DNA of 11,434 bases from Candidatus Pacearchaeota archaeon (GTDB taxonomy: Archaea; Nanobdellota; Nanobdellia; Pacearchaeales; GW2011-AR1): NCBI GenBank assembly GCA_050124795.1, contig JASFEO010000024.1, positions 1 to 11,434 of the forward strand, in the 5' to 3' direction. The position numbers were made by a program, and so were the translations under genes. A model generated the notes under the pieces. That model searched no databases, had not been told where the DNA came from, and worked only from the letters and a program-made list of their open reading frames with translations. Numbering within the stretch: the first letter of the stretch is position 1; each line of letters starts with the position of its first letter. Shown in pieces: positions 1 to 6,029 of this stretch.

Positions 1-9
1 CGTCAGGAG

Positions 10-130
10 ACATAACAGGAATTTAACGAGAAATGCCTCAGCTCGGCATTTCTCCAAATTTGATTTTCCAGCTCTGTTCCGCTTCGCTTCACGAGGGAAA
101 ATCAAACTTCGTTAAATTCCGATGTTATGT
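10..130 (+). repeat. attC-like structured repeat, copy 1
   Basis: ACATAACA-GGAATTTAACGA (10-29) pairs with TCGTTAAATTCC-[GA bulge]-TGTTATGT (109-130). Ends ACATAAC and GTTATGT resemble attC R''/R'. Inner hairpins are 28-37/45-54 (10 bp) and 59-69/96-106 (11 bp), with GCTTCGC at 81-87. Confidence 0.75.
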
Positions 131-134
131 GCAA

Positions 135-161
135 TTTTGCCTTCGGCATCGTTGCACTAAA
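135..161 (+). repeat. Pre-attC module, copy A
   Basis: TTTTGCCTTCGGCATCGTTGCACTAAA is a near-direct repeat of 1306-1331. CGTTGCACTAAA is identical and the TGCC-TTC-GGCA hairpin covaries with TCCC-TTC-GGGA. Confidence 0.7.
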
Positions 162-186
162 TTTTAGGTCTTCCTGTTGGTCAGAC

Positions 187-295
187 GAATATAACAGCGA
201 TTAAGAGATTCCGAAGTCTTGCAGACTTCTCCATCCAAATTCGGTTTTGTGGGTTGCCTCAAAACCGAACTTCTCTTAATCGCGATGTTATATTC
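187..295 (+). repeat. attC-like structured repeat, copy 2
   Basis: GAATATAACA-GCGATTAAGAGA (187-208) pairs with TCTCTTAATCGC-[GA bulge]-TGTTATATTC (272-295). Inner hairpins are 213-219/223-229 and 240-249/260-269. Same architecture as copy 1 with compensatory substitutions. Confidence 0.75.
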
Positions 296-297
296 AA

Positions 298-333
298 TCG
301 TCGTGTAGATTTATTAAAAGGGGGCTGGCAAAG
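298..333 (+). repeat. Left arm of bipartite inverted repeat flanking the 283-aa ORF
   Basis: TCGTCGTGT (298-306), a 13-nt spacer, then GGGGGCTGGCAAAG (320-333). Both boxes are exact reverse complements of 1290-1298 and 1262-1275. Confidence 0.85.
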
Positions 334-336
334 AAA

Positions 337-1188
337 TTAATAGAAATCGGATAATCCTCTCAATCCAATCATTCTACCCATACCAAAATCACCGAATGAT
401 TGTCTATCTCTATGTCCAAAGGCTCCAAACTCAACAGGAATTCCTTGACTTTTTGCATAATCAAAAATTTCATCTCTTGGAAGTCTTCCCATAAATTCAG
501 GTTTTCCATTTTCAAAATCCCTTCTCATTCCTTCCACATTCAAATCCTCATGGATATACAGAATACTCTTTGGCTTAGCTTCATTTACAAAATCAAGTAA
601 TACTTTATGTAATTGTTCATCCCTTTCGCCAAAATATAAAGTATGAAGTCCTGTTTCTTCTGCTCCAAAAATTACATTTCTTGGATTTTGGACTTTTTCT
701 CTATCGGCGAGATACGCTTCAATAGTATCATAACCTAAATTTCTCGCAACACCTAAATCTCTTTTCATTTGGACTTGGATTGCATCAAGAGCTTTTTGTT
801 CTTTATCTTCTTTTGTTCCTTTATCAAATTTGATCATAGTATCTTCATTAGCAACCAAGTCAATTCCCAATTTATGTGATGTTGCAGAAATATATCTTGC
901 TCCTACTCGCTGTTCTAAATAAGGTATTGCTCCCCAAATATGTGGAGCTGCACCAGAAACAATAACTAAAGCTCCATCCCCATATTGAGATACGTGAGAT
1001 TCAACACATTCCTTTATTTCATCCCAACTAGTAGTATCTCTTGATATTGCTTCTGCTTTAGTATCTGTTTGGAGCCTTTGATAAACTGAGTTTACTCTAT
1101 CATCTGATAAATTAAATAGAGGATTATCTGAATTAGAAAAACCTCTTTCTTGCAATTCTCTTTCAAGTTTACCAATCTGTTTTTCCAT
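337..1188 (-). CDS. Hypothetical protein (283 aa), putative cassette cargo between attC-like copies 2 and 3
   Basis: Long ORF with soluble alpha/beta-like composition and a TATA-like TTTAAATA (1220-1213) upstream. No family recognised. Confidence 0.85.
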   Translation of the reverse strand: MEKQIGKLERELQERGFSNSDNPLFNLSDDRVNSVYQRLQTDTKAEAISRDTTSWDEIKECVESHVSQYGDGALVIVSGAAPHIWGAIPYLEQRVGARYISATSHKLGIDLVANEDTMIKFDKGTKEDKEQKALDAIQVQMKRDLGVARNLGYDTIEAYLADREKVQNPRNVIFGAEETGLHTLYFGERDEQLHKVLLDFVNEAKPKSILYIHEDLNVEGMRRDFENGKPEFMGRLPRDEIFDYAKSQGIPVEFGAFGHRDRQSFGDFGMGRMIGLRGLSDFY

Positions 1189-1212
1189 ATTAATATTAAT
1201 GATAATAACTAG

Positions 1213-1228
1213 TATTTAAATCTTTCTA
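1213..1228 (-). promoter_or_regulatory. Putative archaeal BRE/TATA promoter of the 283-aa ORF
   Basis: The minus strand reads purine-rich AGAAAGA then TTTAAATA, 25-32 nt before the ATG at 1188. Confidence 0.5.
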
Positions 1229-1261
1229 TTCTGTTACTACTTATATGTGACTAAATATACA

Positions 1262-1298
1262 CTTTGCCAGCCCCCAGAAAAAACAATAGACACGACGA
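1262..1298 (-). repeat. Right arm of bipartite inverted repeat flanking the 283-aa ORF
   Basis: CTTTGCCAGCCCCC (1262-1275), a 14-nt spacer, then ACACGACGA (1290-1298). Confidence 0.85.
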
Positions 1299-1300
1299 CT

Positions 1301-1349
1301 TTGAGTTTTCCCTTCGGGACGTTGCACTAAAACTCAATCCCTAACGGGA
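1301..1349 (+). repeat. Pre-attC module, copy B
   Basis: A TTGAGTTT/AAACTCAA stem (1301-1308/1330-1337) encloses TCCC-TTC-GGGA and CGTTGCACT, followed by a TCCC-TAAC-GGGA hairpin (1338-1349). Matches 135-161. Confidence 0.7.
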
Positions 1350-1474
1350 GAATATAACAGGAATTTAACGATTCCAGAGCCTTGCAGGCTCTTCCATCCA
1401 AATTTGATTTTCCAGCTCTGTTCCGCTTCGCTCTACGAGGGAAAATCAAACTTCGTTAAATTCCGATGTTAAAT
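1350..1474 (+). repeat. attC-like structured repeat, copy 3 (last of the array)
   Basis: GAATATAACAGGAATTTAACGA...TCGTTAAATTCC-GA-TGTTAAAT. The R' end GTTAAAT fits GTTRRRY exactly. 1397-1471 matches 53-127 at 73/75 nt, and the first inner hairpin AGAGCCT-TGC-AGGCTCT resembles copy 2. Confidence 0.75.
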
Positions 1475-1482
1475 ACAATAAA

Positions 1483-1725
1483 TCATAATCCTCTTTTCAA
1501 ACTCCGACTAGTCACAACAAAAATAAACAAAAAACTAAACAAATAAACATCCTGCCTTGAAACCAAACTCACCAAACTTCCAATTAAGCAAACTAAACAT
1601 ATTAATTTAAACCACTTTCCCCCACACTTTAATTCTTCTTTAGTTTTTTTGGCTAAAAAATCTCCAATAAAAAAACCCAAAACTAAAACAAAAATTCCAA
1701 TTCCAAATTTCAACACCTCCTGCAT
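1483..1725 (-). CDS. Small membrane protein (80 aa, about 3 TM helices)
   Basis: Three hydrophobic stretches. Starts 2 nt after the trpS stop, so probably co-transcribed. Confidence 0.75.
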   Translation of the reverse strand: MQEVLKFGIGIFVLVLGFFIGDFLAKKTKEELKCGGKWFKLICLVCLIGSLVSLVSRQDVYLFSFLFIFVVTSRSLKRGL

Positions 1726-1727
1726 TT

Positions 1728-2849
1728 TTAATTTTTATATAAAAACCTCTCAACCTCTTTTTTTGCTTTTTCTCTTTTTTCCTGATGAGTCTTCAAAAAC
1801 GCATTTATTTTTTCAATTAAATAATTTTTTAATTCATTTGTTAACATTTTCCCGGACTTATAATCATTATAAATTTTTTCCAACTTTTCATCATCAGGCT
1901 CAAAAAACATTTTCAAATATTGAAAACTCACGTCAATATCAGGATTGCCTCCTTTTTTTCTGTGCTCTTCAATTGTGTCCCGCCCCCCTGAAAAAGCATA
2001 TTTTTTTATTTTCTTTTCAACTTCTTTTGGGGAGTCTGTTGTCCAAATAGAATGTTCTCCTGATGCAGACATTTTTCCTCCAGTTCCAGTTAAAGGCGGC
2101 AGAAAAACACTATGCAAAATTCCTGGTTTGTAATATCCTAGTTTAGGCATGACATCCCGCGAAATTCTAAAATGAGGATCCTGGTCAATCCCCAAAGGAA
2201 TCAGGCATGGAATATTTTTTCCTTTCAATACCGACGGCAAAAAAGCAGGAACCGCCTGCATGCTTGTATAAAAAATGCTCCCGATATTCATGCTGTCATT
2301 AAAACCAAAACTTGTCTTAATCGTCGAGAAAGTTATCTTCTTTGCAACACGGCATGCATGCTTATACATTAAATCAGCATGTTTAGTGTCAATCAGAAAA
2401 TGCGTTTTTTTAGGATTAAACCCAAGAGCAATAACATCAAGCATGTCCTCATAAGTTGCTTTTGCAGTATCCTCAAGTGAAACATCTTTTTTATATAAAA
2501 ACTTTTCTTCATCAGGAAACTGAAACCACATCTCAACTCCGAATTTATCCTGCAGCCATTTGCACATCATCCACGGCATCAGGTGCCCGATATGAACCTT
2601 GCTTCCTTTTGAAGAGGCCCTCCCTGTATAAAGAAAAAAATTGTTGCCTTTTTCATACTCATCAAGAATCCAATTCAAATCACGATTAGCAAAAAAAACA
2701 TTTCTCCTCAAAAATAAATGCAAATCCCCAGTATGTTTTTTAACCCTCTTTAATAATTTCTCATCCAATCTTGAAACTCCAAATTCCTTTATTAACTTGC
2801 TGTAATTAATTTCCCCTGACACCTCATAAGGAGTTACTTTCTCTTTCAT
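1728..2849 (-). CDS. trpS: Tryptophan--tRNA ligase, archaeal/eukaryotic type
   Basis: Motifs VTPYEV, FLYTGR, HIGH, DEEKFL, IPCLIPLGIDQDPHFR, KMSAS, KKYAFSGGR and GGNPDIDVSFQYL. Confidence 0.97.
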   Translation of the reverse strand: MKEKVTPYEVSGEINYSKLIKEFGVSRLDEKLLKRVKKHTGDLHLFLRRNVFFANRDLNWILDEYEKGNNFFLYTGRASSKGSKVHIGHLMPWMMCKWLQDKFGVEMWFQFPDEEKFLYKKDVSLEDTAKATYEDMLDVIALGFNPKKTHFLIDTKHADLMYKHACRVAKKITFSTIKTSFGFNDSMNIGSIFYTSMQAVPAFLPSVLKGKNIPCLIPLGIDQDPHFRISRDVMPKLGYYKPGILHSVFLPPLTGTGGKMSASGEHSIWTTDSPKEVEKKIKKYAFSGGRDTIEEHRKKGGNPDIDVSFQYLKMFFEPDDEKLEKIYNDYKSGKMLTNELKNYLIEKINAFLKTHQEKREKAKKEVERFLYKN

Positions 2850-2861
2850 AAACTTCTAAAG

Positions 2862-2887
2862 AAAATGTATTTTTTAAAACTTTAGAA
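2862..2887 (+). repeat. 26-bp direct repeat, copy 1 (contains the trpS TATA box on the minus strand)
   Basis: AAAATGTATTTTTTAAAACTTTAGAA is 24/26 identical to 3959-3984. Confidence 0.7.
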
Positions 2888-2901
2888 ATTGCTTCGCAGG
2901 A

Positions 2902-3609
2902 TTATTTTTTGGCTACCTTCCACAATTGCTTGAAAAAACTTTTGTATCCCTCTGCAACTTGTTTGCTTTTTATCAGGATTGCATGATATGGTTCATCCCA
3001 AACAAAAATTGCAACCTTGTTTGCATAAACTGCTGTTGCGGATGGAAAAGATAGAAATTCCGGCAAAGTTCTAATTTCCATTAAACTTCTTTTTGCAATT
3101 TTTTTAGTATTTTTAGTTAAAACTTTAACTTTTATCTTTTTTTTATTCATTTGTTTATTGAATTGGGGATAAAAATAAGGCAGCACTTTTTCAATATATC
3201 CTTGTTCCTCAAAAACAACATAATTTTGCTTTTGCTTTAATATATCTTTCAATACTGTTTTCAAACCTTCTTTACCCTTGTAAACTTCAACAATAGATTC
3301 ACTTCTTGAGAAGCTTGTATAACTTTTTAATTTAGGCAAAATATTTTTTATCTCTGCTTCTCTTTCCTTAATATAATCTAATAATTTATCTGGATTAGAA
3401 GCAGAAAAATATTTTCTATTTTCTTTAATTACATAAGAGACCAAACCTTTTTCTCTTAATTTTTCTAATGTATCATAAATATTTGTTCTATGTAATCCAG
3501 TTTCTTGTGCAATTTTGCTTACAAGTGAATCCCCTAGTTTTAATAGAGCAACAAATACTTCAATTTCCCCTTTAGACAGCCCCGCTCTTTCTAATATTCT
3601 TTTGTCCAT
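2902..3609 (-). CDS. TrmB-family transcriptional regulator (N-terminal wHTH plus C-terminal effector domain)
   Basis: GLSKGEIEVFVALLKLG...IAQETGLHRTNIYDTLEKLREKGLV, VEVYKGKEG, YANKVAIF and a C-terminal FFKQLWK. Confidence 0.9.
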   Translation of the reverse strand: MDKRILERAGLSKGEIEVFVALLKLGDSLVSKIAQETGLHRTNIYDTLEKLREKGLVSYVIKENRKYFSASNPDKLLDYIKEREAEIKNILPKLKSYTSFSRSESIVEVYKGKEGLKTVLKDILKQKQNYVVFEEQGYIEKVLPYFYPQFNKQMNKKKIKVKVLTKNTKKIAKRSLMEIRTLPEFLSFPSATAVYANKVAIFVWDEPYHAILIKSKQVAEGYKSFFKQLWKVAKK

Positions 3610-4034: not shown

Positions 4035-6029
4035 ATGAAAAGGGGAATCCTCATAATACCGCTTGCATTAATTTTCATCTCAGTAATTTCTGCAGAAATA
4101 GTAATCACAACTCAGCCAGATGAAATCTATAACCTCGGAGACACAATAAAGACCCCAGTGACTGTGAAAGCGCTTAGCGATGTTTCAGGAAGTTTCCGGA
4201 TGAACCTTTTATGCAGCGGCCGCGAGATAAACTTTTACAAAAACGGAATAAACCTGCACTATGGCGAAGAAGAAAAATTAACTCCGTCGCTTGTTTTAAC
4301 AAAAGACATAATTGAAGGAATCATTGGAATGTGCAAATTAAAAGCATCCTTTGCAACAGAAGAACCAGTCTTAACAAACGAGTTCAAAATTTCAAATTCA
4401 TTAACAATCACTACAAAAGAAAATAAAACAGAATTCTATCCTGGAAAAAGTATTTTTATAGAGGGGGATGCAATAAAAGAAAACGGAAAAGGTGTGAACG
4501 GATTTTTAGATTTAACTGTTTTTTCAAGTAACGGAACAGAATCAAATTACCTCGAGACAATAACAAATGGAATTTTTTCTGCGAATATTTCACTCGATAA
4601 AAACGCAAAATCAGGAGATTATGTGATTAAGTTTTATGCATATGAAAGAAATTATTTGGGCGAGACAACTAACGAAGGAATATATGAGGAAGTTATTTCT
4701 GTTGTGCAAATTCCGACAAGTTTAGAAATTCTTTTTGAAACCCCGGATGTAGAGCCTGGAACTTCTGCCCAGATTAAAACTATTTTGCGTGATCAGACAG
4801 GAGAGAAAATTGAAGCAACAAAATCAATGATAAAAATAAAAGATAAAAATGGTTTTATTTTGCAGGAAAAAGAAATAACAAATGATGAATTTTTGGAATT
4901 TCCAATTTTGTATAATGAACCCCCTGCGCGATTTACAATTATCGCGGCATCAGGAAAATTAAATAATGAGGCAGAATTTAATGTTATTGGAAAAAAAGAT
5001 TTAAAAATTGAAATAATTAATAAAACACTTTTGATTACAAATATAGGCAATGTTCCTTATAATGATACTGCATTTGTAAAAATCGGAAACCAAACTCTTG
5101 AAATTAATGTTGCTCTTGAATTAGATGAAACAGAAAAATATATTTTAACTGCGCCCGACGGAGAATATGATATTGAAGTGTTGTCAAATGATAAAAGTCA
5201 TATTGCCGAGGGAGTAATGTTAACTGGAAAAGCAATTGAAGTGAAAGAAGCAAGCGAGAGAACAGCCTCAATAATCAAATATTCATTTATCTGGTTTTTT
5301 ATAATTGGAATTTGTGTTTTTGTTTCATTCATGGTTTTAAAGAAAGGATACAAAAGAAGTTTTTTTGGTTATATTTACCCTAAGAGAAAAGAAAAACAAG
5401 TCGCGTCTCCATTAAGAAAAAAATATTTAATTAATTCGCAAAACAGAGCAGAACTTTCTCTTTCAATAAAAGGCGAGAAACAAAATACAAGTTTAGTTTG
5501 TTTGAAAATAAAAAACTTAAAAGAAATTAGCGGAAGAAAAAACAGTGCTCAGGATACATTACAGGAAATTGCAAATTTGTCTGATTCAATGAAAGCTGCA
5601 ACTTATGAAAATAATGATAATTTATTTTTTATTTTAACGCCTCTAAAAACAAAGACTTTTAGAAATGAAAGAACAGCAGTGGACTTGGCAACTAAGATTA
5701 AAGAAATGTTAGCTCATCACAATAAAATGTATAATCAAAAAATTGAATTTGGTATTTCATTAAATAATGGAAATATCGTCGCTAAAGAAGAAGGTGGTGT
5801 TTTAAAATTCATGAGCATGGGAACAATGATTACAACTGCAAAAAAAATCTCAACTCTTTCAAATGAAGAAATTTTCTTAAGTGAAAAAATAAAAGAAAAA
5901 AATATTTCGGGTATAAAACTGGATAAAAAAACAAAAGACGGAATCACTTATTATACAATAAAAGAGTTAAGGGATTCTGATAAACATAAAAAGTTTATTA
6001 ATAATTTTTTAGAGAGATTGGATAAATAG
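4035..6029 (+). CDS. Single-pass membrane protein: signal peptide, beta-rich ectodomain, TM helix, degenerate class III nucleotide cyclase-like domain
   Basis: Signal peptide MKRGILIIPLALIFISVISA and a TM helix at about aa 416-435. The C-terminal SLVCLKIK...NDNLFFIL...IEFGISLNNGNIV...MGTMITTAKKI...EIFLSE follows the class III cyclase motif order. Confidence 0.8.
   Translation: MKRGILIIPLALIFISVISAEIVITTQPDEIYNLGDTIKTPVTVKALSDVSGSFRMNLLCSGREINFYKNGINLHYGEEEKLTPSLVLTKDIIEGIIGMCKLKASFATEEPVLTNEFKISNSLTITTKENKTEFYPGKSIFIEGDAIKENGKGVNGFLDLTVFSSNGTESNYLETITNGIFSANISLDKNAKSGDYVIKFYAYERNYLGETTNEGIYEEVISVVQIPTSLEILFETPDVEPGTSAQIKTILRDQTGEKIEATKSMIKIKDKNGFILQEKEITNDEFLEFPILYNEPPARFTIIAASGKLNNEAEFNVIGKKDLKIEIINKTLLITNIGNVPYNDTAFVKIGNQTLEINVALELDETEKYILTAPDGEYDIEVLSNDKSHIAEGVMLTGKAIEVKEASERTASIIKYSFIWFFIIGICVFVSFMVLKKGYKRSFFGYIYPKRKEKQVASPLRKKYLINSQNRAELSLSIKGEKQNTSLVCLKIKNLKEISGRKNSAQDTLQEIANLSDSMKAATYENNDNLFFILTPLKTKTFRNERTAVDLATKIKEMLAHHNKMYNQKIEFGISLNNGNIVAKEEGGVLKFMSMGTMITTAKKISTLSNEEIFLSEKIKEKNISGIKLDKKTKDGITYYTIKELRDSDKHKKFINNFLERLDK

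Follow-up and report, generated by a model that had tools for sequence, protein, structure and literature searches.

Folded attC-like elements in cassette arrays of a DPANN archaeon and the XerA-type recombinase genes beside them

Integrons are the textbook platform for gene capture and shuffling, and they are defined by the integrase IntI, whose extra domain reads the extrahelical bases of the folded attC site. Here, we focused on three attC-like elements, named e1, e2 and e3, which lie at the left end of a stretch of DNA from a Pace-/Woesearchaeota-type DPANN archaeon (the window, i.e., the first 11,434 bases of contig C24). Our reading, to which we assign a probability of roughly 0.8, is that e1-e3 are folded-DNA recombination sites working as functional analogues of attC, and that they bound mobile cassettes at the distal end of a chromosomal array. 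This reading builds on a covarying fold common to all copies, on their organization in co-oriented arrays, on cassette ends that complement the neighbouring element, and on the recurrent position of tyrosine recombinase genes, lacking the IntI-specific insertion, beside an attI-like site. The genome (G000) is a metagenome-assembled genome (MAG) of 1.06 Mb in 38 contigs, with approximately 31% G+C, 90% completeness and 4% contamination.

Fold, array organization and cassette borders of the elements

Element e1 (8..132, plus strand) opens with six nucleotides followed by AAC (N6+AAC, 8-16; AAC, 14-16) and closes with GTT (124-126), after which come the first six nucleotides of the next cassette (N6, 127-132); its interior comprises a GA bulge (121-122), a 12-bp L stem and two inner hairpins framed by CCAAAT and AACTTC, and it scores 134.6 bits with the covariance model introduced below. 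Element e2 (187..295, plus strand, 104.3 bits) belongs to a second sequence subtype, with N6+AAC at 187-195 (AAC, 193-195), GTT at 287-289 and the N6 of the following cassette at 290-295. Element e3 (1350..1476, plus strand, 131.4 bits) is the last attC-like site of the array, with N6+AAC at 1350-1358 (AAC, 1356-1358) and GTT at 1468-1470. An earlier note, made from the sequence of this stretch alone, had proposed that the three elements share one fold; the landmarks it described were found exactly where it had placed them, and the folds are better than those of all shuffled sequences. From the outside in, the common fold is composed of a stem of 5-9 bp (TAAC/GTTA), one A-T pair, a 2-nt GA bulge and the 12-bp stem, above which a three-way junction carries two hairpins, with the unpaired CCAAAT and AACTTC framing both. 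When folded as RNA, the elements have z-scores of -5.3 to -10.9, and none of 200 shuffles equals them on either strand; folded as DNA, the z-scores are -6.1 to -10.1. All three are GC-richer than the flanking DNA. The 12-bp stem exists in one version in e1 and e3 and in another in e2, with both arms changed, and all 25 pairs of the model are intact in the three elements, in agreement with the covariation that the earlier note had described.

The family was searched in the genome by BLAST and a motif scan, and then with an Infernal covariance model (R1) built from 11 copies; as a plain MAFFT alignment with RNAalifold returned outer stems only, with the inner hairpins out of register, the structure of R1 was set by hand. 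The model finds 24 copies on 8 of the 38 contigs (six on C5, four on C30, three each on C24, C31 and C29, two each on C3 and C23, and one on C34), spaced 0.2-3.2 kb apart and in a single orientation within each contig. No copy was detected outside the arrays when the large contigs of the genome were scanned with R1, and a 25th match is the reverse strand of e3 (E = 0.7). All 24 copies belong to co-oriented arrays, so that the scattered single copies against which the earlier note had cautioned are not what is observed. Many copies sit at contig ends, indicating that the repeats break the assembly. The window's own left edge is a contig end, and e1 stands there; an identical copy opens contig C31, and C24 and C31 part after GATGTTA. 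Moreover, element unitigs have a depth of 79-326, compared with 31-35 for unique parts, as is predicted for repeats.

Across the family, the copies, about 105-165 nt in length, are mosaics of swappable stem and hairpin versions around the invariant AAC-A, CCAAAT, AACTTC, TTAA and ATGTT. Among 43 distinct copies from 11 genomes, 90.5% of the cells pair, as compared to 74.8% after shuffling and 32-52% with a slid partner. The alignment behind these figures, which also served for the slid controls, was fitted to the model and is thereby mildly biased towards the structure. Changes on both sides are seen in 18 of the 25 model pairs, and the L stem alone has double changes in 10 of its 12 pairs. 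The pairs between AAC and GTT are near-invariant (CG in 41 of 43 copies, AU in 43 of 43 and in 42 of 43, the last with one gap). In this alignment, the L arms are collinear save for one mostly empty column, with no extrahelical bases in the L stem, and the lone conserved irregularity of the stem is a bulge of 2-4 nt one base from GTT, the spacer between the R and L stems being otherwise mostly paired. Both deviations from attC, the missing extrahelical L base and the paired spacer, had been pointed out in the earlier note from the three window copies, and they hold across the 43.

We then turned our attention to the borders between elements and cassettes. To the right of GTT, conservation drops abruptly, and on the left side it fades gradually; in addition, identical downstream sequence begins exactly after the GTT of different element subtypes (on C29 and C23, and on C34 and C3). 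For each GTT, we checked whether the N6 that follows it is the reverse complement of the N6 preceding AAC in the next element along the array, using a set of 59 elements made up of the 24 copies of the genome and 35 of 37 model matches in ten stretches of relatives; two matches were excluded, one on the minus strand (E = 0.68) and one that resisted parsing, four ends were corrected by eye and one degenerate end was masked. A perfect match of six in six was obtained for 13 of 42 neighbour pairs (7 of 16 in the genome and 6 of 26 in the relatives), compared with 2.0% of 3210 non-neighbour pairs and 4 of 56 comparisons of an element with its own flank, and none of 10,000 permutations reached 13 perfect neighbour pairs. 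For 10 of these 13 pairs, the flank downstream of the element itself does not match, and the complementarity always stops after exactly 6 nt. The pair formed by e2 and e3 is one of the 13: the N6+AAC of e3 (1350-1358) is the exact complement of 287-295, the cassette between the two elements opening with GTTATATTC and e3 with GAATATAAC, just as the earlier note had read them. Since the border lies within the 3' triplet, the first bases of a cassette complement the start of the cassette's own site, and an excised circle would regain a perfect 9-bp R stem. Judged from the sequences, the N6 complementarity is thus the predicted signature of cassettes that excise as circles. Separately, the same cassette start was observed after three different elements, each at a contig end (C3:1-104, C31:5192-5295 and C29:1-113), which represents either three copies of one cassette or a varying cassette order in the sampled population.

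It could be argued that such elements are structured non-coding RNA genes, transcription signals or relics resembling miniature inverted-repeat transposable elements (MITEs) that have amassed in a variable region of the genome. Their strong covarying structure on both strands, GC-richness relative to the flanks, high copy number, terminal inverted repeats and presence in other metagenomes would all be expected in that case. Nevertheless, scans of the window for tRNA and tmRNA gave no match, and Rfam 15 gave none at the gathering score, with three chance-level matches (E values of 4.6-7.9), all of them within an open reading frame (ORF). No target-site duplication pattern was seen around the elements and no copy lies outside the arrays, which speaks against MITEs. 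Furthermore, such an origin leaves unexplained that the 5' N6 complements the 3' flank of the neighbour and not that of the element itself, as well as the strict co-orientation within arrays and the unique, hairpin-less attI-like site beside the recombinase gene described below. We regard this explanation as extremely unlikely.

XerA-type recombinases and attI-like sites at the arrays

Only two genes of the genome match PF00589 (tyrosine recombinase), and both abut an array. The first (C3:922-1704, plus strand) codes for 260 aa, and its start lies 0.34 kb from two minus-strand elements; the second (C5:24013-24837, minus strand) codes for 274 aa, with six plus-strand elements nearby, the first of them 1.1 kb away. 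Each gene is divergent from its own array. The C5 array is chromosomal, as it lies between SRP54 and, at the other end, a major facilitator superfamily (MFS) transporter and FtsY. The earlier note had suggested a divergent tyrosine recombinase to the left of the window; the two genes abutting arrays, each with an attI-like site, are in agreement with the suggestion of such an enzyme, but as the window starts at a contig end, they lie on other contigs (C3 and C5).

Regarding the identity of these proteins, the archaeal XerA model NF040815 (cut-off of 220) is the best-scoring model for both (the C5 copy reaches 234.5 bits and the C3 copy 200.8), while the IntI model TIGR02249 (cut-off of 265) gives 177.5 and 179.8 bits, with the match split and profile positions of approximately 180-237 skipped. 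The best structure matches are the XerA proteins 4a8e and 5hxy (from Pyrococcus abyssi and Thermoplasma acidophilum), each in one continuous stretch, whereas IntI4 of Vibrio cholerae (2a3v) aligns in two stretches, with about 40 residues (approximately 198-237) left out. The XerA alignment shows the catalytic residues (R, K, H-x-x-R, H and Y) to be conserved. Five further array-linked paralogues reach 179-201 bits on the IntI model, again below 265, and array-linked recombinases are no nearer to IntI on that model than housekeeping XerA proteins (179-201 versus 198-229 bits). By these comparisons, the array-linked recombinases are predicted to be XerA-type enzymes without the IntI-specific insertion, for which the earlier note had suggested looking.

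A tree of 44 recombinases from 38 genomes separates two kinds of enzyme. A short-branched clade (SH-aLRT of 99) unites 29 of the 44, namely 23 copies without a nearby array and 6 second copies; none of its members is array-adjacent, and 10 of the 11 array-adjacent copies fall outside it, on longer-branched lineages. The array-adjacency label requires 3 changes on the tree, compared with 9.9 when shuffled, and none of 500 shuffles was as low. Six genomes hold both kinds of recombinase, one from the 29-member clade and one adjacent to an array. Based on their position in the tree, the array-linked enzymes appear as a paralogue distinct from the presumed housekeeping XerA. In G000 and in the relative G002 (90% and 88% complete, respectively), recombinases of the housekeeping XerA clade were not found, and the array-linked ones are the only ones present.

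Between the start codon of the recombinase and the first cassette lies a hairpin-less, attI-like site, 40-110 nt upstream of the start, which ends in GTT+N6+AAT and has a left half similar to the L'-R' half of the elements. Its GTT+N6 is complementary to the N6+AAC of the first element at 9 of 9 positions in G002 and in G036, at 8 of 9 in the C5 locus of G000 and in G047, and at 7 of 9 in the C3 locus of G000. The 22-nt core of the site is unique in G000 and in contig C1 of G002 when 0-1 mismatches are allowed, the remaining matches having 4-5 mismatches. As side observations on these loci, the left arm of the attI-like site (TTCGATTAAAAG-type) is repeated in inverted form within the 5' end of the recombinase gene (C5:24803-24824 and 24876-24897), so that the start and promoter region of the gene are bracketed, and the same arrangement is found near 371.8 kb of C1 in G002; the inverted copy may be an autoregulatory or accessory binding site. 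On C3, the first cassette and its element are tandemly duplicated (C3:98-862; 393 nt, 98.7% identity, 373 nt apart), and the attI-like site there has the same downstream sequence as the first element.

The earlier note had also proposed scanning related genomes with an Infernal model, and elements were indeed detected in 27 of 60 relatives (E up to 0.001), comprising 20 of 36 from the same family and 7 of 24 from other families of the order. Among 150 genomes drawn evenly from the phylum, 57 carry elements (E up to 1e-5); the listed genomes of that sample all belong to the same class or family, with a completeness of 95% or more, and their elements again form co-oriented clusters. In 9 of the 27 positive relatives (G002, G006, G007, G011, G027, G036, G038, G042 and G047) an element lies at most 2 kb upstream of a recombinase gene, and G020, with a distance of about 10 kb, is the tenth with both features on one contig within 10 kb; the divergent orientation is the same in 10 of 10. 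In the other positive relatives, recombinase and elements are far apart or on different, mostly small contigs. These genomes are kin and not independent, and the layout counts are given without a probability. Ten of 80 loci of recombinase relatives were scanned with the model, which found one clear element upstream of an archaeal relative with 79% identity and two chance-level matches; the pattern search that had retrieved these relatives was dominated by bacterial XerC/D. Joints in three other metagenomes connect modules of related elements from other organisms. It was also possible to observe, in G002, a lone element (C1:94690-94797) far from the main array (371-391 kb), followed by GTT+CCCAG..., and CCCAG... 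also makes up the first bases after two elements of G000.

Folded single-strand hairpins are known as Xer substrates in the CTX phage (attP), and the pdif modules of Acinetobacter are elements that exploit Xer. Along these lines, the cassettes might exploit the host dimer resolvase XerA and pile up at dif, as integrative mobile elements exploiting Xer (IMEX) do, the attI-like site being dif itself and no dedicated integrase being involved. The scores with XerA models and structures, the fact that the single tyrosine recombinase of G002 (two contigs) is the array-adjacent one, and the absence of a housekeeping-type copy from G000 fit this proposal. The G002 site, with its two 9-nt inverted arms around 6 nt, also follows the general layout of dif described by Cortez et al. 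2010 (PMC2958812). A dif site is a duplex of about 28 bp with two 11-bp inverted arms and a 6-bp spacer, present once per chromosome. This palindrome is, however, lost in the C5 site of G000, where the right arm is cassette-specific. A housekeeping-type XerA and a separate array-adjacent paralogue coexist in six genomes, with 0 of 29 members of the housekeeping clade adjacent to an array. As for the chromosomal position, the G002 array is just 55 kb from cdc6/orc1 on a 511-kb contig; the GC skew of that contig (C1) is noisy, with no clear turning points, and gave no terminus. Moreover, the dif sites of Thermococcales do not adjoin xerA in the available text of Cortez et al. 2010 (PMC2958812). 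Overall, these results make the use of a host resolvase at dif unlikely.

In a further scenario, the array would be the remnant of a classical integron, a cluster of attC sites lacking an integrase (CALIN), in which the sites are ordinary attC, a canonical IntI went unassembled or acts in trans from the community, and the XerA-like neighbours are coincidental. The AAC...GTT ends, the logic of R and L boxes, the long branched terminal structure, as in the Vibrio cholerae repeats (VCRs), and cassette ends split at GTT are consistent with it, and Ghaly et al. 2022 (PMC9668308) report attC clusters without IntI in Nanoarchaeota MAGs. Nevertheless, no IntI-type gene appears in this 90%-complete genome, in which the PF00589 matches are two only, and all tested proteins fall under the cut-off of the IntI model (177-229 versus 265 bits). 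Furthermore, the L stem has no extrahelical bases and the R-L spacer is mostly paired; all 10 relatives with recombinase and elements on one contig within 10 kb repeat the layout of recombinase, attI-like site and array, with orientation unchanged; and the N6 of the attI-like site matches the first cassette. The frequency of the elements (57 of 150 sampled genomes), when set against the 75 of 6718 archaeal genomes in which a standard attC/IntI screen found integrons, does not favour ordinary attC sites either. We consider an origin as an IntI-dependent remnant very unlikely.

Proposed mechanism and comparison with integrons and Xer/dif

Returning to our reading of e1-e3 as recombination sites, the mechanism that we propose starts from a dedicated tyrosine recombinase, derived from XerA, which would be encoded divergently at the head of the array, beside a unique double-stranded attI-like site. 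The enzyme would bind the L arm (AACTTC-NN-TTAA) and the R arm (TT + N6) of a hairpin formed by one DNA strand, probably the minus strand of the window, and strand exchange would take place inside the invariant ATGTT. Recombination between two hairpins would excise a circular cassette, whose site regains the perfect 9-bp R stem, and recombination between a hairpin and the attI-like site would insert a cassette. The choice of strand is based on the stem mismatches of the plus strand, which amount to 31 A.C versus 7 G.T: as A.C mismatches of the plus strand become G.T wobbles on the minus strand, it is probably the minus, or "bottom", strand that folds, as it does in integrons. Catalysis by the array-linked recombinase, the strand used and the point of crossover are aspects that we infer, as are the current activity of the system and a source of single-stranded DNA to feed it.

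Several observations weigh against this reading or narrow it. Concerning the strand, one conserved position opposes the choice of the minus strand (G.T in 33 of 43 copies), and the DNA fold energies of the two strands differ by 0.2-1.1 kcal/mol only; concerning the crossover, it cannot be placed within the invariant ATGTT. The pairing percentages come from the model-fitted alignment mentioned above. A perfect N6 match is absent from 29 of the 42 neighbour pairs; several of these match at 5 of 6 positions and many are more than 2 kb apart, and the far-apart imperfect pairs may conceal diverged, unrecognised sites. Neither a circle nor a deletion junction of this organism was found in the assembled contigs of four public runs; one public run contains the present stretch and is probably its source. 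In G000 and G002, the array-linked enzyme may double as dimer resolvase. Regarding the cassettes, the cargo of G000 runs both ways, with 15 antisense and 10 sense ORFs (mechanical ORFs of at least 80 aa), and some intervals contain several ORFs or none, unlike typical integron cassettes. Lastly, G000 is a MAG with 4% contamination, in which several of the arrays are located on small contigs.

When compared with integrons, the system shares a recombinase gene divergent from a co-oriented array with a double-stranded attI-like site adjoining it; imperfect-palindrome sites with AAC...GTT ends, R and L boxes, a border in the 3' GTT and complementary cassette ends; and sites whose structure is better conserved than their sequence and which resemble one another more when they come from a single genome, with accessory, mostly unknown cargo. 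It differs in that its recombinase is a XerA paralogue without the IntI-specific insertion, and in that its R stem has 9 bp, not 7, and its L stem no extrahelical base. The R-L spacer is paired, save for the bulge of 2-4 nt on the R'/L' arm, and the CCAAAT/AACTTC junction motifs are invariant. In addition, an extra upstream hairpin module and private inverted repeats flank the cargo, which comes in both orientations and with upstream regions of its own, instead of single promoterless, co-oriented ORFs served by the promoter Pc. Altogether, the system is integron-like by structural tests, yet it departs from integrons in the IntI domain, the extrahelical bases and the co-oriented promoterless cassettes.

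Bouvier et al. 2009 (PMC2727003) define the extrahelical bases, the unpaired central spacer and the variable terminal structure of attC sites, the last of which is branched in VCRs; the branched tip, which the earlier note had listed as a deviation from attC, is therefore shared with large attC sites of the VCR type. VCRs resemble the present elements in length (about 105-165 nt), in homogeneity within a genome and in a branched variable terminal structure above the L stem. In VCRs, however, three extrahelical bases and the unpaired central spacer set the strand choice and are read by the extra domain of IntI (Bouvier et al. 2009, PMC2727003), and here these features are missing or replaced by one small bulge. 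Compared with Xer/dif (Cortez et al. 2010, PMC2958812), the recombinase family, the intact catalytic motifs, the two-arm core and the short central region are the same, whereas the array has a separate paralogue, branched hairpins of about 110 nt instead of a 28-bp duplex, and dozens of cassettes at one locus.

Standard attC and IntI screens of 6718 archaeal genomes led Ghaly et al. 2022 (PMC9668308) to report integrons in 75 of them, along with six IntIs that have the IntI-specific domain and sites that fold like bacterial attCs; the CALINs of that work might include members of the present family. Since 57 of 150 genomes carry elements here, as against 75 of 6718 with integrons there, the comparison suggests that the standard screen mostly misses this family. 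A review of archaeal tyrosine recombinases (PMC8371274) mentions integrons, in its available text, only in general terms, and our literature search, with subscription journals not covered, returned no description of XerA-type cassette arrays in archaea. On balance, we lean slightly towards the broader view that an integron analogue derived from XerA independently of IntI is widespread among the DPANN archaea of this class, with a dedicated recombinase lacking the I2 domain, an attI of its own and branched attC-like hairpins devoid of extrahelical bases. A link between the I2 domain and the extrahelical bases is drawn by Escudero et al. 2016 (PMC4792948), who also raise a chicken-and-egg question, namely how selection could have acted on the domain ahead of the attC sites or the reverse. 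If our reading is true, the capture of cassettes as single-strand hairpins needs no IntI-specific domain, which bears on that question: folded sites served by a plain Xer-type enzyme would exemplify the "missing" state of integron origin, or else a convergent solution. Standard integron screens would then also be overlooking a major platform of archaeal gene exchange, one that is frequent in organisms with genomes of 0.5-1.5 Mb, in which accessory gene flow is poorly understood. Both the enzyme (260-280 aa) and the sites (about 110 nt) are small enough for direct biochemistry.

Cassette contents and flanking genes

Besides the VCR-like nature of the branched tip, the earlier note had missed a hairpin module, here called module B, upstream of e2 and e3, as well as the private inverted repeats of the cassette. 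In general, module B consists of a covarying stem of 6-9 bp around a small covarying hairpin and the unpaired CGTTGCACT, followed by a CCC-NNNN-GGG hairpin. Its first copy in the window (133-165, plus strand) has a stem, a GCCTTCGGC hairpin and the unpaired CGTTGCACT, and together with a small CC-TGTT-GG hairpin it makes up the "empty" cassette between e1 and e2 (127..186, plus strand), in which there is no ORF. The second copy (1301-1337, plus strand), with a 9-bp covarying stem, a CCCTTCGGG hairpin and the unpaired CGTTGCACT, is followed by a small CCC-TAAC-GGG hairpin (1339-1348, plus strand) upstream of e3. Module B also precedes elements on C29, C30 and C5, and other copies bear a different GC-rich module in that place. 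We also observed that CGTTGCACT is partly complementary to a frequent cassette start (...TGCAAT), and that G002 elements carry a conserved unpaired CGTTGCACT within their first inner hairpin.

The private inverted repeats of the cassette between e2 and e3 have their right-hand arms at 298-306 and 320-333 (298..333, plus strand), directly after the N6+AA that follows e2, and their left-hand arms at 1262-1275, which pairs with 320-333, and at 1290-1298, which pairs with 298-306 (plus strand). Across the family, such repeats start 2 nt past the first N6 of the cassette, with a partner approximately 40-70 nt upstream of the closing element, and they occur in 25 of 38 neighbour pairs (the cut-off being the 95th percentile of 1406 mismatched pairs). 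As modelled with RNA parameters only, an excised cassette could fold into a branched hairpin much longer than the core element.

The cargo of this cassette is an ORF of 283 aa (337..1188, minus strand), antisense to the array and with an AT-rich upstream region of its own, and its product gave no lead in Pfam, NCBIfam or the Atlas. The remaining arrays of the genome carry NYN nucleases, an M28 peptidase, a methyltransferase, the 2'-5' RNA ligase family, an ArsR regulator with an Fe-S protein, an insertion sequence transposase and many unknowns; the cargo is accessory or unknown. NYN-domain proteins (predicted RNases) are present in four cassettes (C31:337-885, C31:4235-4843, C30:2817-3365 and C5:27883-28401), two of which (C31:4335-5048 and C5:27893-28607) are 92% identical in DNA. 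Within the C5 array there is an rve-family (DDE) transposase gene (C5:26972-27823), so that an insertion sequence has landed there. Two further observations concern the cassette frame: the ends of C23:11144-11353/12824-13073 and C29:212-424/930-1169 are 92% identical and their middles differ (two ORFs versus one), and a contig of another metagenome joins position 324 of the window to 1279 around a different sequence. This suggests that cargo can be swapped inside a conserved cassette frame.

Past e3, the chromosomal flank (1483..3609, minus strand) contains an 80-aa ORF, a class I aminoacyl-tRNA synthetase (Trp/Tyr-type) and a TrmB-family regulator. These core genes mark the distal border of the array, which stops at e3; together with the cassette-end signature, this agrees with the earlier note's placement of the elements at the distal end of an integron- or CALIN-like array. 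Further along the window, and apart from the cassette system, an ORF of 664 aa (4035-6029, plus strand) has as its only domain match a weak, sub-threshold one to MG2 (alpha-2-macroglobulin-type).

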